From Candidatus Latescibacterota bacterium (GTDB taxonomy: Bacteria; Krumholzibacteriota; Krumholzibacteriia; WVZY01; JAKEHA01), in contig OY970173.1 in the NCBI GenBank assembly GCA_963707635.1, positions 2,801,489 to 2,865,488 of the forward strand: 64,000 bases of DNA, read 5' to 3'. A program made the translations under genes and the position numbers. Shown here piece after piece: positions 12,296 through 53,701 of this stretch; the first letter of the stretch is position 1, and the number at the start of each line of letters is the position of its first letter. The notes below the pieces were generated by a model that saw nothing but the letters and a program-made list of their open reading frames with translations, was not told where the DNA came from and searched no databases.

Positions 12296-12317
12296 GGATG
12301 CTCGGATCACCTGCTGC

Positions 12318-12931: not shown

Positions 12932-13106
12932 TGGTGGAGGCGGCGGGAATCGAACTTTCAAGAAGATGAAACACTAACCTGATGATGGCGCTCGATTTCG
13001 GACGATAAGAATTGAAACATCACAGGTTATACGAACGCCGCTTCTCCACCCCAGTCCTCTGCAGTCTACCGGAATCGACCCATGTCATGGAGACATTTTG
13101 GAGACG
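12932..13106 (-). repeat. Class I ssrA-3'-end-derived repeat element, copy A (~175 bp)
   Basis: Minus-sense 3' end GTTCGATTCCCGCCGCCTCCACCA is identical to the last 24 nt of ssrA (T-loop to CCA). The adjoining ~150 bp is conserved with copies B and C (shared blocks cctgatgatggcg, gatttcgg, cagtcctct, ggagacattttggagacg) but unrelated to the ssrA body. The T-stem 5' strand and acceptor 5' strand are absent, so it is not an intact tRNA or tmRNA. Confidence 0.7.
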
Positions 13107-13159
13107 AGAACAAGATATCGGGCATGCAGGACTTCATCCTCCAGCCTGGGTGCAACGGT

Positions 13160-13891: not shown

Positions 13892-13899
13892 TCACTTGA

Positions 13900-25914: not shown

Positions 25915-28836
25915 GTGACGCGCTTGCCAACTCCGCGCGATTTCATCCTGCACCGCAGTTTCTTCGCCATGCTCGTACTGGCGGTCCCGCTCTTCCCGGC
26001 GCTGCTCTCCGCGGCAGAGAACGCGACCTCGACGGCCGTTCCTGCTCCGGCCGCGCCCGTGCGCCATGCGCCGTCGATTGATCGCAACGCCATCCAGGCC
26101 GCCGTTCAGGAATTCCAGTCTTCCCAGTCACCCCGCTGGACGGTGTCGTGGGACCCGGTGAGCGGTCTCCCTCGAATGCTGACTGGCCAGACCACGCGCT
26201 CCTACGGGGCCACATCGGAAGCCGCCGCGCTGGCATTCGCTGGCGAGCATCGGATGCTTCTGGGCTTGATCGATGAGAAACACTCGGTGCGCCTGGTTGG
26301 AACGAAACTCATGCGCACCCAATGGCGCGTAACGCTGCAACAACAATTCGCCGGGATCGACGTCCTCGATGGGACGATTCAGGTGGTCGTGGACGGGAAA
26401 GGCCGCGTCCTATATGTGACAAACTCGGCGTGGCCGGTTTCCGCCGTCGATTTCTCGATCGATGTCGGTGAGAGCGCCGTACGCTCCTCGATCGCCCGGC
26501 GGTTCAGTGGCGAAGACGTCACCTACAATGACGGACCCCGCCGCGTGATCTACCCATCCGGGAATGGGCGGCTCGCGTATGTGGCGTACGTGCTCGCCGG
26601 CCCGCAGGGGCCGTGGCGCGTCCTCGTCGATGCGCGGACGGGCGGCATCCTGGAAGCGCGGCGGTTGGTGGTCGAGGAGAAGCAGGCCCCATCGCAGGAT
26701 GCCGCGACGCAGCAGAATCCGTCGCGCCCCGCGGACGTCGCCGACGTCAATGATCCGTGTGCCCGCGAGTGGAACGAGATGGGGGGAGCCGCGGTGATCG
26801 AGGTCCCGGATCCTGCAGACCCGTACTATGTCGACGTAAAGGTTGGCGTGCCCGGTCTCGGCGAGTTTCAACCGCAGGGGATCGGGACGTCCGCTGCGGG
26901 GATCAAACTCTTTCCGTGCATTTATTACACAATCCAGGTCGACTACAACGTGCACACCTGGGGTGGCTGGAATACTCCCAACGGCTTCCGTGATGTCTTC
27001 TTCGTCAACGTCAACAACATGAACTGGTACTGGAATCTCGGGCTCATTCCGCAGGCGCAGCTGTTCTGTACGACCGCCTACAACGACATGGGACTGATTC
27101 TCCCCGGCAAGGCCTGGGTCGCCGGCGGGAATCGATGCGGCGACGGCCTCTTGTGCGATCTGGTGGGATCGTTCCAGTTCGACATCATCGAACCGAACAA
27201 CACCAAAGAGCTCTATCTCTCGGTTGGGATGCAGCGGGTCTCAGTTTCGTGTCCGTCATGGGGGACCATCCGGGTCAAGATCATCGCGAAGTCCCGTGTC
27301 TTCGACCCCAACCCGGTGACCACGCTGAACCAGCCCTTCACGGACCAGGATGACGCCAACGAAGCCGTTCCCTGCGACGCGTACATCGGCGTCGACCTTC
27401 CGAATCTTACCCCGCCGCCGCCCGGGCAACCCTGGACTCTCACGGGCGACTATTGCGAGATCGTGGACATCACGGCCCCTGCCAAAACGTACACCTCGGC
27501 GCGCGACCCGAATTTCCCCTATCTGCGCCGGTGCGACATGTTCGAAGCGGTGAATGCCTACTACCACATCACGACCAACCAGCTCTACATCCAGTCTCTC
27601 GGTTTTACCGGCCTTTCCGGCATCAACAACCGCGCGCATCGCGTGGACCCGCATGGGATGGATCACGTGGACAACTCGCAATACGTCGGTAATCCCCCGG
27701 GACTTGGCTACATCGAGTTCGGCGAGGCCTTTGTCGACGACGCCGAAGACGCCGACGTGATCCTCCACGAGTACGGCCACTCGATTCAGGACAACCAGAC
27801 ATTCGGCTATTACCTCGGGACTGGCGCAGGCAACGGCTTCGGCAACGAGACGTGGGCGATGGGCGAGGGGTTCGCCGACTACTGGGCGTGCAGCAACTTT
27901 GCCGACGAGAGTACCGCGAGCGGCTTCGACCCCGCCGCGTACGGCGAGTGGAACAAACAGAACATGACCGGGACCCGCAGGGTCGACAAGAACAAGATCT
28001 ATCCGACGAATATGGAAAGCGAAGAACACGCCGACGGAGAGATCTGGTCGCGCACGCTGTGGGACCTCTTTCAGGCAGTCGGGAAGACGACCTCTGACGT
28101 GCTCATACTGGAGAGTCACTATCTCGTTCCTTCACGTCCATTGTTCAGCGACGGCGCCAAGGCGTTGATTGCAGCGGACGCAGTTGCCAACGCGGGCGCC
28201 AACAAGAATACGATTGTCGCCATCTACGTCGATCGCGGCATCTTCCGTAGTCTCGCCGTTGCATCGTCGCCCATCAACGGCGTGCCGATCACCGTGTCGA
28301 GGCAGGACGTACGTGGCGATCAAAGTGATGCCACCGACTTCAACCGGACGTATGCGTGGGGGGACTCGGTATCGCTCGACGCACCGCCCTCGTTTGGCGA
28401 CCGTACTTTCACGCGCTGGGATGTGGACGGCGTCGCGGGTGCGAACGGCGACTTGACCGCCGTCGTGCGCATGGACGAATCGCCACCATTTCACTCGGCC
28501 ATCGCTTACTACGATACTCTCCCTGGCGACCCCGGCACGCCCGTCCGTGACATCCCGAAAGCCCTGGCGCTGCTTCAGAATCACCCGAACCCGTTCAACC
28601 CGACGACGACGATCACGTTCACGTTGCCGAGGGAGATGGAGATCGAGCTTTCGGTGTTCGACGTGGCGGGCCGGCGGGTGGCCACACTCCGGAGCGGACG
28701 CGAACGGGCAGGCGTCTATGCCGTGGTGTGGGATGGACGGAGCGCGGCCGGTGAGACGGTGAGCTCGGGCGTGTACATCTACCGGTTGCGAGCGGGCCAA
28801 ACGGTTCTGACGAGGAAGATGACACTACTCAAGTAG
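25915..28836 (+). CDS. Secreted zinc metalloprotease, fungalysin/thermolysin-like (M36/M4-like), with T9SS-type C-terminal sorting domain
   Basis: HExxH site VILHEYGHSIQ with a downstream Glu motif GEGFADYWA, resembling fungalysin HEYTHG...EGWSD. C-terminus LLQNHPNPFNPTTTITF...VFDVAGRRVATL...WDGRSAAGETVSSGVYIYRL...RKMTLLK. GTG start at 25915 (ATG alternative 25969). Confidence 0.65.
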   Translation: MTRLPTPRDFILHRSFFAMLVLAVPLFPALLSAAENATSTAVPAPAAPVRHAPSIDRNAIQAAVQEFQSSQSPRWTVSWDPVSGLPRMLTGQTTRSYGATSEAAALAFAGEHRMLLGLIDEKHSVRLVGTKLMRTQWRVTLQQQFAGIDVLDGTIQVVVDGKGRVLYVTNSAWPVSAVDFSIDVGESAVRSSIARRFSGEDVTYNDGPRRVIYPSGNGRLAYVAYVLAGPQGPWRVLVDARTGGILEARRLVVEEKQAPSQDAATQQNPSRPADVADVNDPCAREWNEMGGAAVIEVPDPADPYYVDVKVGVPGLGEFQPQGIGTSAAGIKLFPCIYYTIQVDYNVHTWGGWNTPNGFRDVFFVNVNNMNWYWNLGLIPQAQLFCTTAYNDMGLILPGKAWVAGGNRCGDGLLCDLVGSFQFDIIEPNNTKELYLSVGMQRVSVSCPSWGTIRVKIIAKSRVFDPNPVTTLNQPFTDQDDANEAVPCDAYIGVDLPNLTPPPPGQPWTLTGDYCEIVDITAPAKTYTSARDPNFPYLRRCDMFEAVNAYYHITTNQLYIQSLGFTGLSGINNRAHRVDPHGMDHVDNSQYVGNPPGLGYIEFGEAFVDDAEDADVILHEYGHSIQDNQTFGYYLGTGAGNGFGNETWAMGEGFADYWACSNFADESTASGFDPAAYGEWNKQNMTGTRRVDKNKIYPTNMESEEHADGEIWSRTLWDLFQAVGKTTSDVLILESHYLVPSRPLFSDGAKALIAADAVANAGANKNTIVAIYVDRGIFRSLAVASSPINGVPITVSRQDVRGDQSDATDFNRTYAWGDSVSLDAPPSFGDRTFTRWDVDGVAGANGDLTAVVRMDESPPFHSAIAYYDTLPGDPGTPVRDIPKALALLQNHPNPFNPTTTITFTLPREMEIELSVFDVAGRRVATLRSGRERAGVYAVVWDGRSAAGETVSSGVYIYRLRAGQTVLTRKMTLLK

Positions 28837-34255: not shown

Positions 34256-34354
34256 GCACCTCCCAAAAAACTCGTGACGGATCCTGCCCCGGCACGTCTA
34301 ACCGGGAAACGGGCTCCATGCCCGAAAGCCAGCCACCGAACCGGAGGGCCTCCC

Positions 34355-35359
34355 ATGTTTCGACGTCTCGTGCTCCTGACCGTGCTGACCCTGATTGCCG
34401 GCTTCCGCCCGGCACAGGCCGACATCACGACGGGCCTCATCGCCCGCTACCCGTTTGACGGCAACGCCAACGATATCAGTGGAAACAACAATCACGGCTC
34501 GTTGGTGGGTGCGGTGGCGTCCACCACCGATCGTTTCGGGTTGCCCGACCGGGCCTATGCGTTCAACGGCCTGAATACCTATGTGCTGGTCCCTGCCTCG
34601 GCCAGCCTGAACTCGCCGACCACGGCTTGCACGCAGGCGGGATGGACGCTGCAATCCGGAGTGAGTAGTGTGGGATCGGGCTTCAATCCGCTCCTCATGA
34701 AGAGCAATAGCGGTGAGAATGCGTTCATGTACCGGATGATCACGAACCCCACCTACGTGGGCGCCGCATTCAACAACTGGAACACCGCCCAGAGCGCCGG
34801 GCAGGCGACACCGCTCAACGAGTGGCACCACTTCGCGACCGTGTTCAACGGCGCTACCGTCAGGTACTACTACGACGGCGCGTACATCGGGTCGCAGCCG
34901 ATGGTGATGACGATCACCCCGGACAACCGCCCGCTCACCATTGGCGCCGATGTGCCCGGTATTCTCGAGATCTTCAACGGCAAGATCGACGATGTGTCCA
35001 TCTACAGTCGTGCACTCACCGACGAGGACATCGTCGAGCTCTACAATCAGGCGACGCCGACTGCCGTGTCCCAATCGACGCCGCCGTTTTCGCTGGGCTA
35101 CAGCGTTCCCAATCCCAGCGGCGGCGAAAGCAGCGTGGAGTTCACCCTCGACTCGGAGCAGTTCGTCCAGCTCGACGTGTTCGATGTGGCCGGGCGCCGC
35201 GTGCGCGTCATGGAATCCGGAGTTCGTTCGGCCGGAGTCCATCGCGCGACGTGGGATGGGCGCCGGGACAACGGGAGCCATACGCCGTCGGGCGTCTATT
35301 TCTTTCGTCTCCACAGTGGAAACCACGTGCTGACGAGCCGAATCGTTCGGGTGCGGTAG
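34355..35359 (+). CDS. Secreted LamG / concanavalin-A-like lectin domain protein with T9SS-type C-terminal sorting domain
   Basis: Signal peptide (MFRRLVLLTVLTLIAGFRPAQA); LamG-like block (DGNANDISGNNNHGSLVG...WHHFATVFNG...GKIDDVSIYSRALTDEDI); C-terminus ...VPNPSGGESSVEF...VFDVAGRRVRVM...WDGRRDNGSHTPSGVYFFRL...SRIVRVR. Confidence 0.7.
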   Translation: MFRRLVLLTVLTLIAGFRPAQADITTGLIARYPFDGNANDISGNNNHGSLVGAVASTTDRFGLPDRAYAFNGLNTYVLVPASASLNSPTTACTQAGWTLQSGVSSVGSGFNPLLMKSNSGENAFMYRMITNPTYVGAAFNNWNTAQSAGQATPLNEWHHFATVFNGATVRYYYDGAYIGSQPMVMTITPDNRPLTIGADVPGILEIFNGKIDDVSIYSRALTDEDIVELYNQATPTAVSQSTPPFSLGYSVPNPSGGESSVEFTLDSEQFVQLDVFDVAGRRVRVMESGVRSAGVHRATWDGRRDNGSHTPSGVYFFRLHSGNHVLTSRIVRVR

Positions 35360-37362: not shown

Positions 37363-38064
37363 ATGAAGAATCTCGACATCCACGCGCAGCCCGACGACAT
37401 GAGCTGCGGGGCCACCTGCCTGCACGCGATCTACCGCCACCACGGCGACCGGATCGCCCTGGACGACGTCGTACGCGACGTCGAGCGGCTCGAGGAGGGC
37501 GGGACCCTCGGCGTGTATCTCGGCACCCACGCGCTGCGCCGCGGCTACAAGGTGAGCCTCTACTCGTACAACCTCCAGGTCTTCGACCCGACCTGGCGCG
37601 CGCTCGGCCGCGACGAGCTGGTGGACCGGCTCGCGCGCCAGATGGCAGTCAAGCACCAGCGCAAACTCAAGATCGCGTCGCAGGCCTACATCGAGTTCAT
37701 GCGCCTGGGGGGAGAGATTCGCTTCGCGGAGCTTTCGCCCAAGCTGATCCGCCGCCACCTCACCGGCAACGTGCCCATGCTGGCCGGTTTGAGCTCCACG
37801 TATCTCTATCAGACCGCGCGCGAATACGGACCGCAGGGCGAGTACGACGACGTACGCGGTGTTCCCGGCGGGCATTTCGTGGTCCTGTTCGGCTACGACA
37901 ACGAGTCGCGCGACGTGCGCGTCGCCGACCCGTGGCAGCCCAATCCCGAGAAGGAGCGCTACTACGAGGTGGGAATCAACCGGCTCATCTGCGCGATCCT
38001 GCTCGGGGTACTCACCTACGACGCCAATCTGCTCGTCATATCGCCGAGCCGGAAGCGGGGCTGA
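37363..38064 (+). CDS. Papain-fold cysteine peptidase-like protein (C39-like / transglutaminase-like), first gene of the amidoligase operon
   Basis: Candidate catalytic Cys (DDMSCGATCL), His (GGHFVVLFGYD) and Asp (VRVADPW) in the order expected for a papain-fold peptidase; its stop lies 2 nt before the GTG start of the next gene. Confidence 0.5.
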   Translation: MKNLDIHAQPDDMSCGATCLHAIYRHHGDRIALDDVVRDVERLEEGGTLGVYLGTHALRRGYKVSLYSYNLQVFDPTWRALGRDELVDRLARQMAVKHQRKLKIASQAYIEFMRLGGEIRFAELSPKLIRRHLTGNVPMLAGLSSTYLYQTAREYGPQGEYDDVRGVPGGHFVVLFGYDNESRDVRVADPWQPNPEKERYYEVGINRLICAILLGVLTYDANLLVISPSRKRG

Positions 38065-38066
38065 CC

Positions 38067-39524
38067 GTGTCGCGCCTGTTCGTCGTCAATAATCCGAAGA
38101 ACTGGCCGCTCCACGTCCCTGGCGTGGAGGTGGTATCGGCGCGGAGCTACCTCACCGACTCGGCGTACAGCGAAATCGAGAACGCCAAGGTATTCAACCT
38201 GTGCCGGTCGTATCGATACATGAGCACCGGGTACTACGTCTCGCTCCTCGCCGAGGCCCGCGGCCATCGCGCCATCCCGAGCATCATGACGCTGCAGGAC
38301 ATGCGCCAGGACGCGATTTTCCGGATCCGCTCCGAGGACCTGGACGAGCTGATCCAGCGCGCCATGTCGCACCTCAAGGCGGAGCGCTACCAGTTGAGCA
38401 TCTACTTCGGCCGGCCGCTCGCGAAGCGCTATGAGCGCCTCGCGCAGCAGCTGTTCTCCTATTTTGAAGCGCCGCTACTGCGTGCGCACTTCGTCTATCG
38501 CAAGAAGTGGGAGCTGGACCAGATCGATCCGATCGCGGTCAAGGACATCCCCGACTGGCAGCGACCGTTCGTGGTCAACGCGGCCGGAGAGTACTTCCTC
38601 AAGCTCGAGCGCAGGCCGCGCCGGCACAAGACCTTCCGGTACGACCTCGCGATTCTCTACAACCCGGACGAGGCCGAGCCTCCCTCCGACCCGCGCTCGC
38701 TGCGGAAATTCTGCCGCGCCGCCGAACAGCTGGGCATGGATCCCGAGCTCATCACGCGCGACGACTACCGGCGTATCGCCGAGTTCGACGCGCTCTTCAT
38801 CCGCGAGACGACGGCGGTCAACCACCACACCTATCGGTTCGCGCGGCGCGCGGTCGCGGAGGGGCTGCCGGTCATCGACGACCCCGAATCGATTATTCGC
38901 TGCACCAACAAGGTCTACCTGGCGGAGATGTTCGACCGCTATCGCCTCGCCACGCCGAAGACGATGATCGTCCACCGCGAGAACGCGAGCCAGGTCGCGG
39001 AGACGCTGAATCTCCCCTGCATCGTGAAACAACCCGACAGCTCGTTCTCGCAGGGGGTGGTGAAGCTCAACACCCACAAGGAGCTCGACGACGAGATCGA
39101 GCGACGGCTGGAAAGCTCGGACCTCCTGATCGCGCAGGAGTTCATGCCGACCGACTTCGACTGGCGCATCGGCGTGCTGGAGGGCAAGGCGCTCTACGCC
39201 TGCCGGTATTTCATGGCGCACAAGCACTGGCAGATCCTGAAGCGCACCTCGCGCGGCCGGCTGCGGAGCGGGCGCGTGGAATCGATCGCGGTGCCGCGCG
39301 CGCCGCGCGACGTGATCCGGCTGGGCGTGGCCGCAGCCGGCGCGGTCGGCGACGGGCTCTACGGCGTCGACATCAAGCAGCGCGGCGACGAGTTCTACCT
39401 GATCGAGGTCAACGACAACCCGAGCATCGAGGCGGGCTACGAAGACAAGATCCTCGGCGACAAGCTCTATACCCGGATCATGAAGTCGCTCCTGCGACGG
39501 ATCGTCGAGCTAAAGGGAGCGTAA
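38067..39524 (+). CDS. RimK-like ATP-grasp ligase with N-terminal extension
   Basis: The C-terminal ~300 aa follow the RimK-type ATP-grasp pattern (LPVIDDPESIIRCTNKVYL..., PCIVKQPDSSFSQGV, DLLIAQEFMPTDFDWRIGVLEG, GVDIKQRGDEFYLIEVNDNPSIEAG); preceded by a ~180-aa N-terminal domain. GTG start at 38067. Confidence 0.7.
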   Translation: MSRLFVVNNPKNWPLHVPGVEVVSARSYLTDSAYSEIENAKVFNLCRSYRYMSTGYYVSLLAEARGHRAIPSIMTLQDMRQDAIFRIRSEDLDELIQRAMSHLKAERYQLSIYFGRPLAKRYERLAQQLFSYFEAPLLRAHFVYRKKWELDQIDPIAVKDIPDWQRPFVVNAAGEYFLKLERRPRRHKTFRYDLAILYNPDEAEPPSDPRSLRKFCRAAEQLGMDPELITRDDYRRIAEFDALFIRETTAVNHHTYRFARRAVAEGLPVIDDPESIIRCTNKVYLAEMFDRYRLATPKTMIVHRENASQVAETLNLPCIVKQPDSSFSQGVVKLNTHKELDDEIERRLESSDLLIAQEFMPTDFDWRIGVLEGKALYACRYFMAHKHWQILKRTSRGRLRSGRVESIAVPRAPRDVIRLGVAAAGAVGDGLYGVDIKQRGDEFYLIEVNDNPSIEAGYEDKILGDKLYTRIMKSLLRRIVELKGA

Positions 39525-39530
39525 CCGGGC

Positions 39531-40799
39531 GTGTCGCTGCGGCTTTTCGAGGGTTTTGGGGTCGAGCTGGAGTACATGCTCGTCCACGCGGACTCGCTCG
39601 ACGTCCTCCCCGCCACCGATCAGGTCATCCTCGCCGTCGCGGGAGACTTTATCGCCGAGGTCGAGCGCGGCGCGCTCGCCTGGTCGAACGAGCTGGTCAA
39701 CCACGTCATCGAGCTCAAGACCAACGGCCCCGCGCCGCAGCTTCGCGGGCTCGACGATGCCTTCGCGCGCGACGTGGTCGAAATCCTCGCGTTGCTTCGC
39801 CCGCTCGGCGGGCGCCTGATGCCGACCGCCACCCACCCGTGGATGGACCCCGCCCGCGAGACCACGCTCTGGTCGCACGAGGAATACAACGAGGTCTATG
39901 AGGCGTTCGATCGCATCTTCGGCGTGCGGGGGCACGGATGGGCGAACCTCCAGTGCGTGCATCTCAACATTCCCTTCTACGGGGACGCCGAGTTTGCGCG
40001 GCTCCACGCCGCCATGCGTCTGCTCCTTCCGATCATCCCGGCGATCGCGGCGAGCTCGCCCATCCTGGACGGACGCCTCACCGGCCTCATGGACAGCCGG
40101 ATGCATTTCTATCGCGAGAACACGAGGAAGATTCCCTCCATCACCGGCAAGGTGATTCCCGAGCCGGTGTACTCGAAGCGCGAATACGAGGAGACGATCC
40201 TGGGGCGCATGTACGCCGATATCGCGCCGCACGACCCGGAGGAGACTCTGCGCGACGAGTGGCTGAATGCACGCGGCGCCATCGCGCGTTTCGACCGGAG
40301 TGCCATCGAGATCCGCATCATCGACATCCAGGAGTGCCCCACCGCCGACTTCGCCGTCATGCACGCGATCACCTGCGTCCTGCGCGCGCTGGTCGAAGAG
40401 AAATGGCAGCCCGCCGAGCGCCAGCAACGGTTCGACACCGACGCGCTGAATGCCGTTCTACTCGACACCACCCGCCACGCGGAAGAGGCGGCGATTCGGG
40501 ATTCCGATTACCTCGCCGCGTTCGGCTTGCACGCAACCCCGGTGAAAGCCGGCGAGCTGTGGCAGCACCTGGTCGAAACCGTGGTGGCGCCCGATGCGGA
40601 CTTCGGCGATCCGTGGTCGTCGGCGATGCGTACCATTCTGGACGAAGGCACGCTCGCGCGGCGGATCGTGCGCGCGGTCGCCCGCGAGAAGCCGGGAGCG
40701 GCGGCCCGGGCCGGCCTCGAGCGTGACACGCTCCACCGAGTCTACGCCTCGCTGTGCGACTGCCTGAAGTGGAACCGGGGCTTCCATGCCACGCCGTGA
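39531..40799 (+). CDS. Glutamate-cysteine ligase family 2 (GCS2 / YbdK-like carboxylate-amine ligase)
   Basis: GCS2-like N-terminus FGVELEYMLV; ~420 aa; GTG start 7 nt after the upstream stop. Confidence 0.65.
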   Translation: MSLRLFEGFGVELEYMLVHADSLDVLPATDQVILAVAGDFIAEVERGALAWSNELVNHVIELKTNGPAPQLRGLDDAFARDVVEILALLRPLGGRLMPTATHPWMDPARETTLWSHEEYNEVYEAFDRIFGVRGHGWANLQCVHLNIPFYGDAEFARLHAAMRLLLPIIPAIAASSPILDGRLTGLMDSRMHFYRENTRKIPSITGKVIPEPVYSKREYEETILGRMYADIAPHDPEETLRDEWLNARGAIARFDRSAIEIRIIDIQECPTADFAVMHAITCVLRALVEEKWQPAERQQRFDTDALNAVLLDTTRHAEEAAIRDSDYLAAFGLHATPVKAGELWQHLVETVVAPDADFGDPWSSAMRTILDEGTLARRIVRAVAREKPGAAARAGLERDTLHRVYASLCDCLKWNRGFHATP

Positions 40800-41511
40800 C
40801 CGCGGCCGGCGCGACCTTGCGATCGTCGTGAGCTGCGAGCACGGCGGACATCGCGTCCCCGCGCACTACCGTTCGCTTTTCAAGGGCCACGAGCGCGTTC
40901 TAGCTTCGCACCGGGGGTGGGACCCGGGAGCGCTGGTGCTGGCGCGCGCGATCGCGCGCGTGTGCGGCGCCCGGCTGGTCGCCACCACGACCTCGCGCTT
41001 GTTGGTCGAATGCAACCGCTCGATCGGGCACCCGCAGCTCTTCTCCGAGTTCACGCGCCGACTCCCGCCCAACGAGCGCACACGCCTCCTGGAGCGCTAC
41101 TACCGCCCCCATCGCCGCGCGGTCGAAGAAGCGATCACCCGCGCGCTCGAGTCGCACAAACGCGTGTTGCACGTCGGCGTGCATACGTTCACGCCGGTCT
41201 TGAACGGCGTGCGGCGACGCGCCGACGTCGGCCTGCTCTACGACCCGAAGCGCCCGTTCGAGCACGCGGTGGCCGACTCCCTCGTCGTCCACCTCGGCCT
41301 GCGCGCGCCCGCGCTGGTTGTCCGCAGGAACTATCCGTATCGCGGCTGGTCCGACGGCCTGACCACGGCGCTGCGTTCGTGGCTCCCCCGCGGCCGCTAC
41401 GCCGGCATCGAGCTGGAAGTGAACCAGGCGCTCGCCGCCGGAAACGCCCACGCCTGGTCGGCGACGCGGCGCCGGATCGCGGCGTCGTTTCGGGACGCCT
41501 TTCTGGACTGA
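40786..41511 (+). CDS. N-formylglutamate amidohydrolase family protein
   Basis: LAIVVSCEHGGHRVP (metal-binding EHGG-type motif) and later HVGVHTFTP, typical of the formylglutamate-amidohydrolase fold; overlaps the upstream gene by 14 nt. Confidence 0.6.
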   Translation: MPRRDRGRRDLAIVVSCEHGGHRVPAHYRSLFKGHERVLASHRGWDPGALVLARAIARVCGARLVATTTSRLLVECNRSIGHPQLFSEFTRRLPPNERTRLLERYYRPHRRAVEEAITRALESHKRVLHVGVHTFTPVLNGVRRRADVGLLYDPKRPFEHAVADSLVVHLGLRAPALVVRRNYPYRGWSDGLTTALRSWLPRGRYAGIELEVNQALAAGNAHAWSATRRRIAASFRDAFLD

Positions 41512-44106: not shown

Positions 44107-44270
44107 CGCACGCTGGCCCTCGGGCCTGCGTGCGTGATAGACTTATATCCAACGCGAGAGCCTCCTACCGACGCTCCCGCCTGATCGTCGACATCCGAAC
44201 GTCGGCCGGGTGTAGTTATGTGTTCTTCGGCGGCCACCGACTCCGCCCCCGAATACGCAGGAGGCCGTCC

Positions 44271-46682
44271 ATGCGCTCGTTTCTCCTCTCCCTGTCGATC
44301 ACTGTCAGCCTGTTTCCCGTCGCCGCGAGCGCCCAGTGGGGGCTCGACGGGGCTCCGATCTGCACCGCGTGGAACAGCCAGTACTCCCCGGACATTGTCT
44401 CCGACGGCGCGGGCGGAGCGATCATTGCCTGGTACGACTACCGTTTGAGCAGCCTGGATATCTACGTGCAGCGGGTAAACGCTCTAGGGATTCCGCAGTG
44501 GACAGCCAACGGTGTCGCACTGTGTTCGGCCGCCAACGAACAGTACTACCCGGTCGTCGTCTCCGACGGCGCGGGCGGAGCGATCGTCGCGTGGTACGAC
44601 GGCCGCGGAAGTAGCTACGATATCTACGCGCGGCGAATCAACTCGTCGGGGGTTCCCCAGTGGGCAGCCGACGGCGTCGCCCTCACAACCGCGGCGAACG
44701 GCCAGTTCAGCCCCACCATAGTTTCCGATGGTGCCGGAGGAGCGATCGTCGCATGGTACGATTTCAGCAGCGGATCCGATTACGACATCTACGCGCGGCG
44801 GATCAACGCGTCGGGAACTCCCCAGTGGACCGCCAACGGTGTCGCCCTCTGCACCGCTCTTAACGACCAGGCCTATCCCAACCTCGTCTCCGACGGCGCG
44901 GGCGGAGCGATCGTCGTGTGGAGTGACTATCGATCCGGCGCAGGCGACATCTACGCGCGACGGATCAATGCATCGGGGACGCCGCAATGGACCGCCAACG
45001 GCGTCGCCCTTTGCAGCACGGTCGGAGATCAGGCGCACCCCGCCATCGCCGTGGATGGCGCGGGCGGAGCTATCGTGGCATGGGACGACCGTCGCGGCGG
45101 ACCGAACTCGGATCTCTATATCCAGCGCGTGAACGCGTCGGGAACGCCGCAGTGGGCCCCCAACGGCGTCGCCATGTGCACCGCCATGAACGATCAGGAG
45201 TACCCCGCCATCACCCTCGACGGAGCGGGCGGTGCGATCGTGGCCTGGGAGGACTTCCGCAGCGGATTCGACCACGACATTTTCGCCCAGCGGATGGTCG
45301 CCTCGGGATCTCCCCAGTGGGCCGATAACGGCGTTGCCGTTGCCATCGCACCGAACTCGACATATCTGCCTACCATGGTTTCCGATGGCACCGGTGGTGC
45401 AATTCTAGCGTGGCAGGACGACCGCAACGGGTTCGACTTCTCCGACGTCTACATGCAACGGCTCGATGCGCTCGGGAACGCCCAGTGGACCCCCAACGGA
45501 GCCGTGATCTCGAGCGCGGTCGGTCACCAATACGACCTGGCGTTGATCACCGACGGTGCCGGAGGAGCGACGGTCGCCTGGACGGATGACCGCAGCAGTT
45601 TCTACAGCACCCACATCTACGCCCAGCGAGTCGAAGATCACTATGGGTACTGGGGGCACCCGGAGCCCGTCGTCAAGTCGGTCGCCGACATTCCGAAAGA
45701 CAACGGCGGAAGGGTCGCACTCAACTGGACGCCGAGTGGGCGCGACCTCTCGAACCCGCGCACGGTCGATCATTACACGATCTGGCGCGCGGTCGACGTC
45801 ATCCCGGCCCCGGTCTCGAACGCGACCGCGGTCTTGACCGACATTGCGAATGTGGGCGAGACCGCGGACGGACCGGTGTACGCGGTACTTCCTTCTTTGT
45901 CCGGCTACTACTGGGAGCTGGTGGGAACGCAGTCCGCGAACGCCTGGTCCGGGTACTCGTTCTCCACCTCGACGCGTGCCGATTCGGTCGCCGGGAATTC
46001 GGGAACCGAGACCTTCATGGTGGCGGCGCACCTCCAGTACGACTCCTATGTCGCGTTCCCGTCGAACGTGATGAGCGGCCACTCCGTCGATAACCTGGCT
46101 CCCGCCGCCCCGCTGATGCTCACAGCGCTGCGTGCCGGCGCCGACGTGCACTTGCAATGGAATCGCGTGCGCGTCCCTGACCTGCGCGACTACTCGCTGT
46201 ATCGCGCCACGTCCACCGGTGTGACCCCCGTGCCGATCAACTTCCTCGCGTCGGCCGAGGAGACGTTGCTGGTCGACGCAGGCGCGCCGTCCTCCGCGCT
46301 TTACTACATCGTGACCGCTATCGACGTGCACCACAACCAGGGTCCACCGTCGAATGAGGCCAGTGTCGGTGCGCTGACTGGCATCGGAAACACACCACCG
46401 ATCGCCGCCCTGACCGTGCTCGAGAACGTGCCAAATCCGTTCAATTCCCGAACGACATTGCGCGTCGGCCTGCCGCGGGCGAGCGAACTGGAGGTCGAGG
46501 TGTACGACGTCTCCGGCAGGCGGATCCGGGACGAACGGACCGCGGCGCTCGGGGCGGGTTGGCGAGAGGTTCCCTTCGAGGCGCGGAGCACAAACGGGAG
46601 TGTGCTCCCGAGCGGAGTCTATTTCTATCGCGTGACGGCAGCGGGACAGTCCGTCAGGGGCAAGATGGTGATCGCCAGGTAG
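44271..46682 (+). CDS. Secreted tandem-repeat protein (about nine ~55-aa repeats) with FN3-like region and T9SS-type C-terminal sorting domain
   Basis: ATG after GGAGG; signal peptide (MRSFLLSLSITVSLFPVAASAQ); repeats of the form ...PQWTANGVALC...VSDGAGGAIVAW.D.R....DIYA.R.NASG.; a HSVDNLAPAAP segment; C-terminus LENVPNPFNSRTTLRV...VYDVSGRRIR...SGVYFYRV...GKMVIAR. Confidence 0.7.
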   Translation: MRSFLLSLSITVSLFPVAASAQWGLDGAPICTAWNSQYSPDIVSDGAGGAIIAWYDYRLSSLDIYVQRVNALGIPQWTANGVALCSAANEQYYPVVVSDGAGGAIVAWYDGRGSSYDIYARRINSSGVPQWAADGVALTTAANGQFSPTIVSDGAGGAIVAWYDFSSGSDYDIYARRINASGTPQWTANGVALCTALNDQAYPNLVSDGAGGAIVVWSDYRSGAGDIYARRINASGTPQWTANGVALCSTVGDQAHPAIAVDGAGGAIVAWDDRRGGPNSDLYIQRVNASGTPQWAPNGVAMCTAMNDQEYPAITLDGAGGAIVAWEDFRSGFDHDIFAQRMVASGSPQWADNGVAVAIAPNSTYLPTMVSDGTGGAILAWQDDRNGFDFSDVYMQRLDALGNAQWTPNGAVISSAVGHQYDLALITDGAGGATVAWTDDRSSFYSTHIYAQRVEDHYGYWGHPEPVVKSVADIPKDNGGRVALNWTPSGRDLSNPRTVDHYTIWRAVDVIPAPVSNATAVLTDIANVGETADGPVYAVLPSLSGYYWELVGTQSANAWSGYSFSTSTRADSVAGNSGTETFMVAAHLQYDSYVAFPSNVMSGHSVDNLAPAAPLMLTALRAGADVHLQWNRVRVPDLRDYSLYRATSTGVTPVPINFLASAEETLLVDAGAPSSALYYIVTAIDVHHNQGPPSNEASVGALTGIGNTPPIAALTVLENVPNPFNSRTTLRVGLPRASELEVEVYDVSGRRIRDERTAALGAGWREVPFEARSTNGSVLPSGVYFYRVTAAGQSVRGKMVIAR

Positions 46683-48314: not shown

Positions 48315-49265
48315 ATGGCAGCGAAAAAGATTCTGGCGGTGGTGGGTGCGACCGGGGCCCAGGGCGGTTCTCTAGCGCGCGCGATCCTGGGCGACAAGGC
48401 GGGTGATTTCAGCCTGCGCGCGATCACGCGCAAGGTCGATTCCGACAAGGCGAAGGAGCTCAAGAAGTCGGGAGCGGAGGTAGTCGCCGCCGACCTCGAC
48501 GACGTCGAGAGCCTCAAGCGCGCGTTCGACGGCGCCTACGGTGCGTTCTGCATCACGAATTTCTGGGAGCACTTTTCCGCCGAGAAGGAATTCACGCAGG
48601 CAAACCACATGGCGAAAGCCGCGAAGCACGCGAACGTGAAGCACGTCATCTGGTCGACGCTCGAAGACACGCGCCGGTGGGTGCCCTTAAGCGACGACCG
48701 CATGCCGACGCTGGGGGGCAAGTACAAGGTGCCGCACTTCGACGGCAAGGGCGAGGCGGATCACCTGTTCACCGAGGTCGGCGTCCCGACGACGTTTCTG
48801 CTGACATCCTTCTACTGGGAGAACCTCATCTATTTCGGCGCGGGCCCGAAACCCGGGCCGGACGGCAAGCTCGCCCTTACCTATCCGATGGGCGACAAGA
48901 AGCTCCCCGGCATCGCGGTCGAAGACATCGGCAAGTGCGCGTACGCGGTGTTCAAGAAGGGGAACCAGTTCGTGAACAAGACGATCGGGATCGCCGGCGA
49001 GCACCTGACCGGCGCGCAGATGGCGGCAGCGTTGACGAAGGCGCTGGGCCAGGAAGTCCGCTACAACTCCGTGACGCCGGAAGTGTACCGGAGCTTCGGC
49101 TTCCCGGGCGCGGACGACATGGGCAACATGTTCCAGTTCAAGCGCGACTTCGAGTCGGTGTTCTGCGGGGCGCGGAGTCTGGAGTTTTCGCGGTCGCTCA
49201 ATCCCGCGATGCTGACCTTCGACGCGTGGCTCGCGCGCAACAAGGACCGCATCCCGCTCACGTAA
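48315..49265 (+). CDS. NmrA-family NAD(P)-binding protein
   Basis: Rossmann motif ILAVVGATGAQGGSLARAIL at the N-terminus; 316 aa. Confidence 0.65.
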   Translation: MAAKKILAVVGATGAQGGSLARAILGDKAGDFSLRAITRKVDSDKAKELKKSGAEVVAADLDDVESLKRAFDGAYGAFCITNFWEHFSAEKEFTQANHMAKAAKHANVKHVIWSTLEDTRRWVPLSDDRMPTLGGKYKVPHFDGKGEADHLFTEVGVPTTFLLTSFYWENLIYFGAGPKPGPDGKLALTYPMGDKKLPGIAVEDIGKCAYAVFKKGNQFVNKTIGIAGEHLTGAQMAAALTKALGQEVRYNSVTPEVYRSFGFPGADDMGNMFQFKRDFESVFCGARSLEFSRSLNPAMLTFDAWLARNKDRIPLT

Positions 49266-49313
49266 GCCCGAACGAACGATTGGCGCGGGTGGCGAGGCGA
49301 CAGGACCCGCGCG

Positions 49314-50459
49314 CTACAAGCCAAGTAGCGGGCCGATGATGGTGCGCTGGATTTCCGACGTGCCCGAGTACAGGGTGCTGGCGAGGGCGTCGCGCAGCTC
49401 GCGCTCGATGCCGTATTCCACCATGTAGCCGTAGCCGCCGTGGATCTGGAGCGCGTGGCGGGCGCACTCGACCCACGACTCGCTGATGTAGAGCTTGGCC
49501 AGCGCGGCCTCGAGGTACACGCTCCGGCCCCGGGACTTTTGCCAGGCCGACTGGTACAGGAGGCCGCGGGCAGTCTCGAGGCGGATCTTCATGTCGACGA
49601 TCTTTGACGAGATCAGCTGGAACTTGCCGATCGGCTGCCCGAACTGCTCGCGCTCGTTGGCGTAGCGGATCGACGTTTCCAGCAGCCGCCGCATCGCTCC
49701 CACCGCGCCGGCCAGGATGCAGCCGCGCTCCCACGACATCGAGTCGGCGAAGAGCATCTTGCCGGCGCCCTCGCGGCCGAGCCGGTTCGCCTCCGGCACC
49801 ACGCAGTCTTCGAAAAACACCTCGCACATGGGCGAGGTCCGGATGCCCATCTTGTGCGTGTGCTTGCCCAGCGAAAGGCCCGGCGAGTTCCGTTCCACCA
49901 GGAAGCCGGTGACACCGTTGGGGCCGAGCGACGGGTCAATAGTAGCAAACGCGAGGTAGATATCCGCCACCGGGCCGTTGGACACGAACACCTTGCCGCC
50001 ATTGAGCACATAGGCGTCGCCCTTCTTCTTCGCCGTGGTGGCGATCGAATAGGCGTCGGAGCCCGAATTCGGCTCCGACATCGCGTTGGCGCCGATCAGC
50101 TCCCCGCTGCACAGCCTCGGCAGGAATTTCTTCTTCTGCTCCTCGGTTCCGAATCCCATCAGCGGCGTCTCGAGCGTCCACATGTGCGCGTTGATGGAGA
50201 ACACGAGTCCGTTGTCCTGGCACCCGTAGCCGAGACTCTCGAGCACGCCGACGGTGGTGAGCGCGTCCATGCCCATGCCGCCGTATTCGACCGGAACCGG
50301 GAGCCCGTGCACACCCATGGCCGCGCACTTCTTCCAGCCCTCGCGGTTGAACTCGCCCTTCTGATCGCGCTCGATGATGCCGTCGTTGAGTTCCTCGCGC
50401 GCGAATTTCGCGATGCTCTCGCGCAGCTGGGTTTGCTCTTCGGACCAGGAGAAATCCAT
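49314..50459 (-). CDS. Acyl-CoA dehydrogenase family flavoprotein
   Basis: 381 aa from ATG MDFSWSEEQ...; ACAD-family pattern including the C-terminal ...ALQIHGGYGYMVEYGIERELRDA...YSGTSEIQ. The upstream part of the 712-aa track ORF is an out-of-frame overlap with the next gene and is not used. Confidence 0.8.
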   Translation of the reverse strand: MDFSWSEEQTQLRESIAKFAREELNDGIIERDQKGEFNREGWKKCAAMGVHGLPVPVEYGGMGMDALTTVGVLESLGYGCQDNGLVFSINAHMWTLETPLMGFGTEEQKKKFLPRLCSGELIGANAMSEPNSGSDAYSIATTAKKKGDAYVLNGGKVFVSNGPVADIYLAFATIDPSLGPNGVTGFLVERNSPGLSLGKHTHKMGIRTSPMCEVFFEDCVVPEANRLGREGAGKMLFADSMSWERGCILAGAVGAMRRLLETSIRYANEREQFGQPIGKFQLISSKIVDMKIRLETARGLLYQSAWQKSRGRSVYLEAALAKLYISESWVECARHALQIHGGYGYMVEYGIERELRDALASTLYSGTSEIQRTIIGPLLGL

Positions 50460-50464
50460 GTTCG

Positions 50465-52030
50465 CTACTCCATCTTCATGAGGGTCTGATAGTCGGTCTT
50501 CTCGGTGGATGTCTTGGGCAGCTCGGCGTGAAAGCTGAACACGTCCGGGATCATGTACACCGGCAGGTGCTCGGCGCAAAACGCCTTGAGCTTGATCAGC
50601 GAGAGCCGGGCACCGTCGCGGGTGGCGAGGTGGGCGCGCACCTTCATCCCGAGCTCCTCGTCGGGCAGCGCCACCACCGCAGCCTCGCGAATGTCCGGGT
50701 GCCGGTACAGACACGACTCGATCTCGCCCAGCTCGACCCGGTAGCCGCGTTTCTTGACCATGCGATCCTTGCGGCCGGCGTAGGTGTAGTTGCCGCCACC
50801 GGCTTCGGTCACGATGTCGCCCGTCTTGTACCAGCGTACCGCCGCCGCGCGCGGGCCGGTGTCGAGGTAGGCCTTGGCGGTCTGCTCGGGCAAACTCCAG
50901 TAGCCCGAGGTCACCGACGGACCGCTGATGCACAGCTCGCCGCGCTCGCCCCGGGGCACATCGTTTCCCCCCTCGTCGACGACCACGGCTTCCAAATGCG
51001 AGCACACGACACCGATGGGAAACGGGTCGACCCGATCGGCGGGAATCTCCGGGGGCAGCTCGTAGAATGTGCACACGTTCGTCTCGGTGGGCCCGTACAG
51101 GTTGAAGTACCGCGGCTTCGGCATGATCTTGTGCAGCGCCTTCAGGTGGACGATCGGAAACACCTCGCCGGCGAAGAGCACGGTGCGAATGTGGGAGAGA
51201 TCGTAGGTCTCGAGCTTCCCATACTGCACGAGCAGGCTCAAGATGGACGGAGTCGAGTACCACACCGTGATCCGGGCATCGTGGATCAACTGCGCGAGCT
51301 TCTGCGGCTCCTTGCCCACGTCCTCGGGGATCAGGGCGAGCGTGGCGCCGTGCTTGAGCGGGGTGTAGATGTCGAGGATCGACAGGTCGAAATGAAACGG
51401 CGCGTGCGACGAAAACACGTCCGCCGGCACGGGCGAAAACGTCTCGCTGCACCAGTCCACGAAGCTGGTTGCGTTGCGGTGGGACAGCATTACGCCCTTG
51501 GGTCTCCCGGTGGACCCCGACGTGTAGAGGATGTACGCCAGCGCGTCGGCGTCGGGATACACGCTCGACGTCGCCGGGGCCGGCGTCTTCGCATCGCCGG
51601 CGTCCAATGCGTCGCGCAGCCCGCCTCCCCCACCGACATGGCCCAGCACGATCAGCGCGGGGCTCGAACCCTCGCGCGCGAGCTCGCTGCGCAGGGTCGC
51701 TTCGAAGCGCTTCTCGGTGACCGCCACCTTCACCGAACAGTTGTTCAGGATGTACGCGTTGCGTGTCGCCGGCGCGGTCGGGTCGACGGGCACGTAGGCC
51801 GCGCCGGCCTTGAGCGTCCCGAAGATCGCGGCCACCGTGTCGATCGACTTGCCGAGATAGATACCCACGCGATCGCCCGGCCGGACGCCGAGGTGGACGA
51901 GGCGGTCGCGCAGGCGGTCGGACAATCCGCCGAGCTCGCCGTACGTGATCGCCGCGTCGCCCGGCTCGCGGATCGCCGTCTTTGTGGCGAAGCGGGTCAC
52001 CGAATGGTCCAGATATTCGTGCAACGTCAT
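50465..52030 (-). CDS. Stand-alone adenylation (AMP-binding) enzyme, NRPS A-domain-like
   Basis: A-domain-like core motifs: LKAGAAYVPVDP, YILYTSGSTGRPKGV, NLYGPTE, YKTGD, GRKDRMVKKRGYRVELGEIE, ELPKTSTEKTDY. Confidence 0.8.
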   Translation of the reverse strand: MTLHEYLDHSVTRFATKTAIREPGDAAITYGELGGLSDRLRDRLVHLGVRPGDRVGIYLGKSIDTVAAIFGTLKAGAAYVPVDPTAPATRNAYILNNCSVKVAVTEKRFEATLRSELAREGSSPALIVLGHVGGGGGLRDALDAGDAKTPAPATSSVYPDADALAYILYTSGSTGRPKGVMLSHRNATSFVDWCSETFSPVPADVFSSHAPFHFDLSILDIYTPLKHGATLALIPEDVGKEPQKLAQLIHDARITVWYSTPSILSLLVQYGKLETYDLSHIRTVLFAGEVFPIVHLKALHKIMPKPRYFNLYGPTETNVCTFYELPPEIPADRVDPFPIGVVCSHLEAVVVDEGGNDVPRGERGELCISGPSVTSGYWSLPEQTAKAYLDTGPRAAAVRWYKTGDIVTEAGGGNYTYAGRKDRMVKKRGYRVELGEIESCLYRHPDIREAAVVALPDEELGMKVRAHLATRDGARLSLIKLKAFCAEHLPVYMIPDVFSFHAELPKTSTEKTDYQTLMKME

Positions 52031-52046
52031 GGGCGCGACTTTAGGA

Positions 52047-52328
52047 TCAAAGCTTGCCGTGAACGAGTTTGGAAATGAGCGCCAGCGTGTTCAGGTTCTC
52101 GATATCGGCCTCGTGAGCCTCCACCGTGATGTTGAACTTCTGCTCGAGGAACGTCACCAGCTTGAGTGTCGCCAGCGAATCCAGGATCCCCGTGGTCACC
52201 AGCGGGGTGTCGTCGGTGAGCTCGTCCGGGTCCTCGCCCGGAAGGAACTCCGTCAGTATGTACTTCTTCACTACATCGTGAATTGCCTGTTGCTCCACGC
52301 CACTTCCTTTCGTTGGCAGTCCGTTCAT
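52047..52328 (-). CDS. Acyl/peptidyl carrier protein
   Basis: ~93 aa from internal ATG; phosphopantetheine attachment motif GILDSLATLKLV; 16 nt upstream of the adenylation gene. Confidence 0.65.
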   Translation of the reverse strand: MNGLPTKGSGVEQQAIHDVVKKYILTEFLPGEDPDELTDDTPLVTTGILDSLATLKLVTFLEQKFNITVEAHEADIENLNTLALISKLVHGKL

Positions 52329-52415
52329 CCGGCGGGCTGCTGCCCGAGCGAGGCCAGCATCCGTCCCCGCAAGTTTGTCGTGCAGCTGGTCGGCCAGCAA
52401 CCGGCCGGGGCAGGG

Positions 52416-52907
52416 CTAATCCTGGTATCCCTCGCAGAAGTCGACTTCCAGGATTTCGAACGTCTTCACGCCGACCGGAAGCCGCACGTCGACCACCTCG
52501 CCCCTGGCGTGGCCGATCAGCGCGCTCGCCAGCGGTGAGTTGTAGGCGATGACGCCGTTTTCGGGGTCGGTCTCGCCGTCGCCGAGAATCGTGCACTCGC
52601 GCTGGGCGCCGGTCTTGACGTCGCGAATCTTGATCTTCTTTCCGAACGTGACCGACTCCGCGGGAAGCAGCTCTTCCCTGCGCACGACGTTCGCGCCCGT
52701 GAATCGTTCCTGGAGTTGGCGCAATTTGGCGGCCGTGAGCACCTGCTTCTCCTTCGCCGCGTGGTACTCGCCGTTCTCCTTCAGGTCCCCGTGGGCGGCC
52801 GCCGTCGCGATCTCCTTCGCGATGTCGTTTTTCAGAAGCTTCTCGAGGCGGGCAATCTCGTCCCCGAGCTTGCGATACCCGTTTTCCGTAAAGAAATACT
52901 GAGCCAT
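52416..52907 (-). CDS. greA: Transcription elongation factor GreA
   Basis: 163 aa from MAQYFFTENGYRKLGDEIARLEK; conserved GDLKENGEYHAAKE and C-terminal ...NSPLASALIGHARGEVVDV. Confidence 0.85.
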   Translation of the reverse strand: MAQYFFTENGYRKLGDEIARLEKLLKNDIAKEIATAAAHGDLKENGEYHAAKEKQVLTAAKLRQLQERFTGANVVRREELLPAESVTFGKKIKIRDVKTGAQRECTILGDGETDPENGVIAYNSPLASALIGHARGEVVDVRLPVGVKTFEILEVDFCEGYQD

Positions 52908-53124
52908 ATCACCTTTCGTATTCCCGCGCTGACGTACCTCGACCGGGGGGATCACGACAAGCCCGTCGTTGGCAGGACCTCTATTGTAAACGGTCCCCAT
53001 GGCCCCCGTCCACATGCAGCCAACGCGCCACCCCGGGCCGGAGCTGGTGCGCCTCTTGCACAAGTGGAGCGCACACGGCAACTGAGACCCGGCACGAATC
53101 CGCTCCCGACATGGAGGCTTTGAA

Positions 53125-53701
53125 ATGAAACGAGTTAGTGTGGCCCTGGTGGCGATGGCAATTTGCACGTTGCTCGCCAGTCAGGCATCGGCCGCGGCAA
53201 ATCTTGCCCTGCGCGGCATCGGACTCAAGGCAGGCGTCGTCAATCCAGAGGAAGTGGACATGACGCTCGGCCTGGGGCTCATTGTCGACCTCGGCACCGT
53301 GCATCCCAATATCGCCCTGGAAAGCTACGCGGGGTTCTGGTCGCAGACCGAAGACTTCTACGGATCGGAATTCCGGGTGCGCGACATCGCCATCGGCGCG
53401 AAGGGCAAGTACTTGTTCAAGATCTCCAATCCCTCCGTGCAGCCCTTTGCCGGAGCCGGGCTCGGGACTTCACTTCCTCAACGCGAATGCGGAAACCCCA
53501 CCGTTCTCATTCGGCGGGGTTACCATTCCGGGAACATCCGTGGGCGACACCGACACCGAGCTCGGGCTGGATCTCGGCGGCGGGCTTCGCATCGACACCG
53601 GCAGCCAGTTCTCGTTCGTCGCGGAGAGCTGGTTCACACTCGTGAGCGACGTGAATCATTTCTCGCTGATGGCCGGCGCCGTCTACATGTTCGGCCGCTA
53701 G
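53125..53701 (+). CDS. Small outer-membrane beta-barrel-like protein, apparent frameshift near 53470
   Basis: Signal peptide (MKRVSVALVAMAICTLLASQASA). The N-terminal half is in the frame of ORF 53125..., the C-terminal half (...GLDLGGGLRIDTGSQFSFVAESWFTLVSDVNHFSLMAGAVYMFGR) in the frame of ORF 53282..53701; the switch is around ctcgggacttcacttcc. Confidence 0.55.

Follow-up and report, generated by a model that had tools for sequence, protein, structure and literature searches.

A probable proline-activating gene trio of Candidatus Latescibacterota, predicted donor arm of a Dlt-like envelope-modification module whose transferase gene has been deleted

Sets of three stand-alone proteins, an adenylating enzyme, a small carrier protein and a flavoprotein of the acyl-CoA dehydrogenase (ACAD) fold, are known from the pyoluteorin (PltF/PltL/PltE), prodigiosin (PigI/PigG/PigA) and anatoxin-a (AnaC/AnaD/AnaB) pathways, and likewise as RedM/RedO/RedW and Bmp4/Bmp1/Bmp3. 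Three stand-alone proteins with the same folds are encoded in the DNA described here, a stretch of 64,000 nt from Candidatus Latescibacterota bacterium (assembly GCA_963707635.1, contig OY970173.1, positions 2,801,489 to 2,865,488 of the forward strand), called hereafter the window. An earlier note on this DNA had compared the three genes to the cassettes of pyoluteorin and prodiginine type, in which L-proline is converted into pyrrole-2-carboxyl-S-carrier protein. We find it probable that the trio makes an activated, oxidised proline, that in the wider family this donor feeds a Dlt-like pathway esterifying an envelope glycan, and that the transferase of this pathway is the gene deleted from the present locus.

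Similar parts are known from envelope modification. In Vibrio cholerae, the AlmE/AlmF/AlmG system uses a DltA-like enzyme and a carrier to put glycine on lipid A, in a Gram-negative envelope; AlmG is an LpxL-type acyltransferase of the cytoplasmic face rather than an MBOAT-SGNH protein, and the system takes glycine as substrate and has no flavoprotein. The alginate (AlgI/J/F/X) and cellulose (WssH/I) systems carry out O-acylation with a membrane-bound O-acyltransferase (MBOAT) plus an SGNH protein, and depend on acyl-CoA. Bacterial MBOAT/SGNH pairs acylate extracytoplasmic polymers, and Dlt is the only reported pathway of this kind whose donor is a carrier protein (DltC) and not an acyl-CoA (PMC12148441). 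PatA/PatB, which act on peptidoglycan, are likewise an MBOAT and SGNH pair working on an extracytoplasmic glycan (PMC12148441).

The three genes are intact and lie on the minus strand of the window, with intergenic gaps of 16 nt and 5 nt; they are co-directional and tightly spaced, as the earlier note had described them. The adenylating enzyme, 521 aa long as first reported, matches PF00501 (3e-92) and the amino-acid adenylation domain model TIGR01733 (381 bits, above the 317-bit cut-off). Among solved structures its best stand-alone match is PltF (6o6e; 344 bits, E=1.6e-101), and all other single adenylation domains score 229 bits or less. Its pocket residues, placed by motif, are D215, L216, L219, Y258, L285, A287, L311, V319, C320 and K511. 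They give the proline code DLLYLALVCK, and the nine that are visible in the PltF alignment are all identical between the two enzymes. Asp235 and Lys517 are present as well, and the code is not a fatty-acid or aryl-acid one, such a code being what the earlier note had said would argue against a pyrrole-type role. The same code is carried by 96 of 119 close homologues and by 40 of 73 genome loci, the remainder being mostly one position off. In the pocket region DltA is the next-best relative, behind the proline ligases. The enzyme is predicted to be an L-proline-specific ligase for the carrier protein.

The carrier protein matches PF00550 (27 bits), and its phosphopantetheine serine lies within GILDSLATLK, the DSL site already pointed out in the earlier note. 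Its nearest solved structures are the peptidyl carrier protein 2my5, Bmp1 (6cxt_A, an acyl carrier protein, ACP), PltL and PigG, all of which outrank DltC. The flavoprotein matches all three ACAD Pfam domains, in agreement with its first assignment to this family. Its best solved relatives are AnaB (4irn; 478 bits, 54% identity over 378 ungapped residues), Bmp3 (6cxt_B; 339 bits) and PigA (5zw0; 315 bits). It retains Glu244 in a WERG motif, a residue reported to be the catalytic base of AnaB. The position of the catalytic Glu of medium-chain ACADs is a Ser, in YSGTSE, in the flavoprotein and AnaB alike. The proposed chemistry, loading and oxidation of proline, is supported on grounds of homology by the PltF-identical pocket, the AnaB, Bmp3 and PigA relatives and the Bmp1/PltL/PigG-like carrier.

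Homologues of the adenylating enzyme comprise more than 120 cluster representatives with 63-92% identity, and a scan of one genome per species gave 80 loci with 49-77% identity. These relatives are spread over more than 10 phyla. By name, the closest relatives of the window are uncultured Krumholzibacteria and Latescibacteria. Loci are found in Gemmatimonadota, Acidobacteriota, Planctomycetota, Verrucomicrobiota and Myxococcota, in Chloroflexota (Anaerolineales), Calditrichaceae, KSB1, Binatia, Rubricoccaceae and a Microcoleus, and in Beta- and Gammaproteobacteria, including Accumulibacter and Aromatoleum anaerobium. Among cultured Alphaproteobacteria, Mesorhizobium wenxiniae, M. delmotii, Microvirga massiliensis and M. 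lupini have such loci.

Inspection of the flanks of these loci revealed genes that vary by lineage and a single recurring neighbour, a membrane protein of 810-980 aa that was found by tblastn at most loci, mostly directly upstream of the carrier gene. Among the 47 genome loci with enough flanking DNA to be assessed, it is located at most 8 kb from the adenylating-enzyme gene in 39, and all four genes are present in 34. The reciprocal test was anchored on the membrane protein and used 26 metagenome loci with at least 3.5 kb on either side of its gene: the adenylating enzyme was found in 21 of them, and carrier, adenylating enzyme and flavoprotein together in 18. When the open reading frames (ORFs) of the flanks were clustered de novo, no other family exceeded 13 loci. 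A nonribosomal peptide synthetase (NRPS), polyketide synthase (PKS), ketosynthase or thioesterase that could consume the product is not a conserved neighbour in about 85 related loci. The pyoluteorin/prodiginine-type context implied in the earlier note is not supported by the relatives, in which the trio is linked to the membrane protein and not to an NRPS or PKS.

For this partner protein of about 850 aa, Pfam shows only a C-terminal GDSL/SGNH domain (PF13472), and NCBIfam (June 2026 release) gives nothing significant. An AlphaFold2 model of one member, P0121, was built with 38 homologues (predicted local distance difference test, pLDDT, 84.7; predicted template modelling score, pTM, 0.79). 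A Foldseek comparison of this model with the PDB placed DltB at the top (8jem_A, E=2.3e-8, target TM-score 0.64; 6bug_C), followed by the eukaryotic MBOATs HHAT, LPCAT3 and PORCN, and its C-terminal domain matched SGNH/GDSL esterases such as TesA. In the alignment of the family, the membrane domain contains the invariant motifs WRRxN (N310, numbered as in P0121) and TWxLH (H354), about 44 residues apart, a distance that corresponds to the one between Asn and His in the MBOAT pair. Ser629 and the pair Asp824/His826 are invariant in the SGNH domain. The partner is thus predicted, from its modelled structure and its motifs, to be a DltB-like MBOAT-SGNH acyltransferase. Many of its members are labelled "DltB (MBOAT superfamily)" in the JGI annotation, and at E<=1e-30 the family counts 978 cluster representatives, the clusters being drawn at 50% identity. 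In some genomes the partner is split into an MBOAT protein of about 430-470 aa and a separate SGNH protein of about 390-417 aa, which has an N-terminal transmembrane helix and an invariant AGYYEG motif. An invariant RGYYE follows the last transmembrane helix of the partner, or stands at the start of the separate SGNH protein; one may speculate that it is a candidate acyl-shuttle site.

Related loci are often inside polysaccharide loci, which speaks for a glycan as the acceptor. In M. wenxiniae the module lies amid three GT4 glycosyltransferases, a polysaccharide pyruvyl transferase, a methyltransferase and a priming sugar transferase. In the 10-kb flanks of the genome loci, a Wzx flippase was found in 13, GT4 in 13, GT2 in 7, Bac_transf in 5 and CysN/CysC in 6. 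The latter is a fusion of sulfate adenylyltransferase and adenosine-phosphosulfate kinase, present beside the module in L051 (4577-6892, A. anaerobium) and in five other loci; this neighbour is a hint that sulfate, too, may be put on the target polymer.

Close relatives (L086, L087, L088 and L089/L090), with adenylating enzymes 76-92% identical to that of the window, are syntenic with it. In these, the genes follow one another as OPT, 386-aa protein, outer-membrane barrel, greA, MBOAT-SGNH (about 850 aa), carrier, adenylating enzyme, flavoprotein, NmrA, STAS and ssb. L089 can be aligned colinearly to the window, with about 89% nucleotide identity, save for its segment 6856-9505, which contains the 851-aa gene and is represented in the window by about 80 nt. 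What is left there includes the last 14 or so codons of the gene, with the translation RLLADQLHDKL facing the C-terminus HRLLADDLYDELRDRM of the L089 protein, which ends at its stop codon. The MBOAT-SGNH gene is deleted from the lineage of the window, with about 2.6 kb gone. The stop codon of the remnant is lost as well, and it reads in frame into the carrier-protein ORF.

A second genome without the partner gene, the syntenic relative L001, has an adenylating enzyme 92% and a flavoprotein 98% identical to those of the window. In its region 9426-9733, about 260 nt of the 5' end of the partner gene have been kept, against 46 nt of the 3' end in the window. Because the remnants are different, either the gene was lost twice, or one pseudogene was eroded differently in each lineage; window, L001 and L089 are roughly equidistant. 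A scan of metagenome contigs with the closest partner protein, P0123, for a copy moved elsewhere in the lineage without the gene gave none from the sample of L001, and no match at 72%-99% identity.

Selection on the remaining genes was estimated from the ratio of nonsynonymous to synonymous substitution rates (dN/dS) between the window and L001, at a dS of about 0.35. The carrier gave 0.037, the adenylating enzyme 0.12 and the flavoprotein 0.028, against 0.040 for greA, and the ratios of the trio were no higher than in pairs that keep the transferase. They indicate that the trio is still under purifying selection, the test being weak if the deletions are recent. In the window the trio stands among housekeeping genes: greA, ssb and the genes of an outer-membrane beta-barrel protein, an OPT transporter and an NmrA-like reductase. 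The distance between greA and the carrier gene is now only about 117 nt, which makes co-transcription possible. Within 49000-53400 a single sigma-70-like site was detected, upstream of greA (53012-52983), and no terminator-like site was found between greA and the carrier gene, both being weak evidence. Since the promoter-like site is only upstream of greA and no terminator-like site intervenes, expression of the trio by read-through from greA is plausible.

The pathway may be outlined as follows, the first two steps by homology and the transfer steps from gene linkage and predicted fold, in analogy with DltA/DltC/DltB/DltD. The adenylating enzyme would use ATP to load L-proline as a thioester on the phosphopantetheine arm of the carrier, and the flavoprotein would dehydrogenate this prolyl thioester, most likely to pyrrole-2-carboxyl, alternatively to pyrroline-carboxyl as with AnaB. 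In the family, the thioester would then not go to an NRPS or PKS; instead, the carrier would pass its acyl group to the MBOAT domain on the cytoplasmic side, the group would cross the membrane, and the SGNH domain would esterify an extracytoplasmic glycan, for instance an exopolysaccharide or another envelope polymer.

This Dlt-like route is proposed because the module has every Dlt element except DltX, plus the flavoprotein: in full, it combines an adenylating enzyme and a small carrier with an MBOAT membrane protein and an extracytoplasmic domain of SGNH type. In the window the first two are present and adjacent, whereas MBOAT and SGNH proteins are absent. There are several differences from Dlt. 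The code of the module is for proline and not for D-alanine, and the additional flavoprotein would oxidise the amino acid once loaded. The MBOAT and SGNH domains mostly form a single polypeptide, in which no FXYXXF motif is conserved where it would be expected, and most hosts are from diderm phyla that lack teichoic acids. The proteins of the window also stay far under the cut-offs of the Dlt models (290 bits for DltA, cut-off 476; 32 bits for DltC, cut-off 68). PatA/PatB-type systems resemble the module in their pair of proteins, the module likewise lying near polysaccharide genes; in contrast to it, they take acetyl-CoA as donor and have no adenylating enzyme or carrier, and the C-terminal FXYXXF Tyr motif of their MBOAT is not conserved in the module. 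Compared to the pyrrole cassettes, the trio has no NRPS, PKS, ketosynthase or thioesterase downstream, its family partner is the MBOAT-SGNH protein, and its context is often polysaccharide synthesis. Its family is also unusually conserved, with 50-92% identity over more than 10 phyla, and its flavoprotein remains below the cut-offs of the PigA and RedW equivalogs.

With regard to the oxidation state, the product of the flavoprotein is most likely pyrrole-2-carboxyl-S-carrier protein, formed by a four-electron oxidation. The locus L045, from Longimicrobiales, has its genes arranged as adenylating enzyme, flavoprotein, carrier protein, halogenase and MBOAT-SGNH. The halogenase (12946-14352) matches ChlB4, PltA and Mpy16 with 550-575 bits and has the GxGxxG and WxWxIP motifs. 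ChlB4, PltA and Mpy16 are halogenases that chlorinate pyrrolyl-S-carrier proteins, and the presence of an enzyme of this type inside the module favours four-electron oxidation to pyrrole in the family; it also predicts halogenated pyrrole groups. Five halogenase-like neighbours were found in total, of which that of L045 is the sole PltA-type one, the other four being about 28-30% identical to it. Further halogenase-like genes are at 4336-5706 in L063, 8230-9630 in L062 and 18041-19420 in L025. The one in L063 has its best matches in the flavin-dependent halogenases CndH, Mpy16, ChlB4 and PltA, at only about E=1e-40. No claim is therefore made for these four neighbours.

A number of observations weigh against the proposed pathway. 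The flavoprotein scores below the cut-offs of the NCBIfam equivalogs for PigA (442 bits, cut-off 500) and RedW (415 bits, cut-off 650), and AnaB, its closest solved relative, halts at the two-electron product. No Pfam or NCBIfam model recognises the membrane domain of the partner, and its sequence profile retrieves nothing but SGNH esterases from the PDB, so the MBOAT assignment comes from predicted structure and motifs. The FXYXXF acyl-shuttle motif, which is DltX-like, is not conserved in the partner, small DltX-like ORFs not having been searched for. The adjacent transferase is missing in about 15% of assessable loci, and some modules are without the flavoprotein. In the window, a profile search in all six frames found no copy of the partner, and there is no complete pathway locally. 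Substrate, oxidation state and acceptor are all predictions from sequence, linkage and modelled fold.

Two alternatives concern the chemistry. The system may be the same, with a flavoprotein that performs a two-electron oxidation only, so that a pyrroline-carboxyl (dehydroprolyl) ester is transferred. AnaB is nearer to the flavoprotein than the pyrrole-forming Bmp3 and PigA, which speaks for this version, whereas the halogenase embedded in the L045 module, with its pyrrolyl-S-carrier substrate, speaks against it. The sequence features that divide two- from four-electron enzymes are not established, and sequence alone cannot decide; on balance, we consider an AnaB-like product rather unlikely. 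It could also be imagined that the trio activates and desaturates a fatty acyl or other non-amino acyl group, like MbtM/MbtL/MbtN of mycobactin synthesis, which has the same gene architecture, and generic acyl-CoA ligase and ACAD models do match the trio, at lower scores. However, the adenylating enzyme passes the amino-acid adenylation threshold, has Asp235, Lys517 and the exact proline pocket of PltF, and the MbtN model gives just 49 bits on the flavoprotein, versus 442 for the PigA model. This reading has a minimal probability and is rejected because of the specificity code.

Two others concern the role of the trio in this genome. Homology of the three proteins to PltF/L/E, PigI/G/A, RedM/O/W and AnaC/D/B, together with the same proline code, would fit a classical pyrrole starter cassette for a natural product, whose consuming NRPS, PKS or ketosynthase is elsewhere in the genome. 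However, the large ORFs of the window include no NRPS, PKS, condensation or thioesterase gene, the conserved neighbour across about 130 related loci is the MBOAT-SGNH protein and not a synthetase, and synteny gives that transferase as the ancestral neighbour here, which makes a starter cassette very unlikely. The statement in the earlier note that condensation, PKS and halogenase genes are lacking holds for all large ORFs scanned in the window. Alternatively, the trio is a non-functional leftover, intact only since the deletion is recent. The partner gene is deleted with nothing similar in the window, and the loss in L001 with a different remnant suggests a recurrent or ongoing decay of the locus. 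Against this, the three ORFs are intact in both lineages without the partner, and their dN/dS is low, which has little power if the deletions were independent and recent. We regard the leftover as unlikely. The trio may work here with a transferase encoded elsewhere, or be a still-intact leftover. Its retention under selection after the loss of the transferase would point to a partner elsewhere or to a second role.

More broadly, we propose, tentatively and with a little less than even confidence, that the proline module is a second carrier-protein-dependent MBOAT-SGNH pathway, so far unrecognised, which is present in more than 10 mostly diderm phyla and makes pyrrole-2-carboxylate esters of glycans, halogenated in some hosts, and whose trio has been kept in the window after loss of the transferase. 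If true, the pyrrole-forming enzymes would be, beyond starters of natural products, the donor arm of a widespread envelope-modification machine, and the Dlt paradigm (carrier to MBOAT to SGNH) would be found a second time, in phyla of Gram-negative type. An ester with a pyrrole-2-carboxyl or a dehydroprolyl group, in some cases halogenated, would be an unreported decoration of bacterial polysaccharides. It could alter surface charge, hydrophobicity, resistance to phages or enzymes, or plant-microbe recognition, the module being carried by Mesorhizobium and Microvirga. Such trios are likely flagged by genome-mining tools as orphan NRPS-like clusters, and their true context would be missed, as the partner's MBOAT domain goes unrecognised in Pfam and NCBIfam. 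No description of the module was found in the literature, whose coverage was incomplete, so that this is an absence of evidence only.

Table 1. Position of the trio and of the adjoining features in the window
Feature	Position	Strand	Description
ACAD-fold flavoprotein gene	49314..50459	minus	381 aa; predicted prolyl-S-carrier-protein dehydrogenase
Adenylating-enzyme gene	50465..52030	minus	521 aa; predicted L-proline--[carrier protein] ligase
Carrier-protein gene	52047..52298	minus	83 aa from GTG (most likely start); PF00550 match
3'-end remnant of deleted MBOAT-SGNH gene	52358..52403	minus	blastn 80% identity, 46 nt, to L089 9443-9487
greA, upstream neighbour (context only)	52416..52907	minus	NCBIfam GreA models

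Positions of the genes are given in Table 1. The start of the carrier protein is most likely the GTG at 52298, giving 83 aa in place of the 93 or so of the earlier note. This choice is made because L001 has an ATG at the same codon, because the GAAAGGAAG ribosome-binding site and the conserved nucleotides set in just upstream, and because gene calls in relatives give 83-84 aa; L001 conserves both start codon and ribosome-binding site. The 93-aa version (ATG 52328) was rejected, as its extension enters non-conserved DNA that is partly the remnant of the deleted gene. A 117-aa ORF starting at TTG (52047-52400, minus strand) is an artefact, explained by the reading of the remnant into the carrier ORF, its N-terminal extension being composed of the in-frame remnant and non-conserved spacer. 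The flavoprotein begins with MDFSWSEEQ, the same N-terminus as in its relatives.

The top NCBIfam model for the carrier protein was NF052616 (ACP_for_OlsHI; 116 bits, under the 130-bit cut-off). A role as carrier for ornithine-lipid synthesis by OlsH/OlsI was considered and rejected, because of this sub-cut-off score, because the large ORFs of the window include no OlsH- or OlsI-like gene, the search for a GH3-like (OlsH) gene among them being negative, and because OlsH is reported to have no ACP requirement (PMC12493201). It would seem that the carriers of the trio module form a sister family to those encoded next to OlsH/OlsI.

Some variants of the module were also observed. L006, L032, L036, L040, L054 and L082 have an MBOAT-SGNH protein, a carrier and an adenylating enzyme whose proline code is identical or nearly so, and no nearby flavoprotein; these variants may transfer unoxidised proline. 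Two MBOAT-SGNH copies are present in L032, L038 and L062. The locus L172 is on the megaplasmid pMVF16-2 of Microvirga sp. VF16 (NZ_CP069356.1, about 705.3-711.5 kb), a cultured legume symbiont with all four genes. There, the MBOAT-SGNH gene is divergent from the carrier, adenylating-enzyme and flavoprotein genes, and the stretch is unannotated in the PLSDB record.

The G+C content of the window is 59-70%. A cassette of three genes on its plus strand (37932-41511) encodes a RimK-like ATP-grasp protein (RLAN and RimK domains), a protein of glutamate-cysteine ligase family 2 and an N-formylglutamate amidohydrolase-like protein, and is also found near the trio locus in L086 and L088. The window further encodes large predicted secreted proteins with a C-terminal FlgD_ig domain or a Por_Secre_tail domain of the type IX secretion system (T9SS), at 6-2897 (+), 9764-12553 (-), 25915-28836 (+), 34274-35359 (+) and 44130-46682 (+). 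Such sorting domains, carried by many proteins of the window, fit an organism of the FCB group, of Krumholzibacteria or Latescibacteria type. Among the proteins at these positions are an M6 peptidase, an M36 peptidase and one that is lectin-like.

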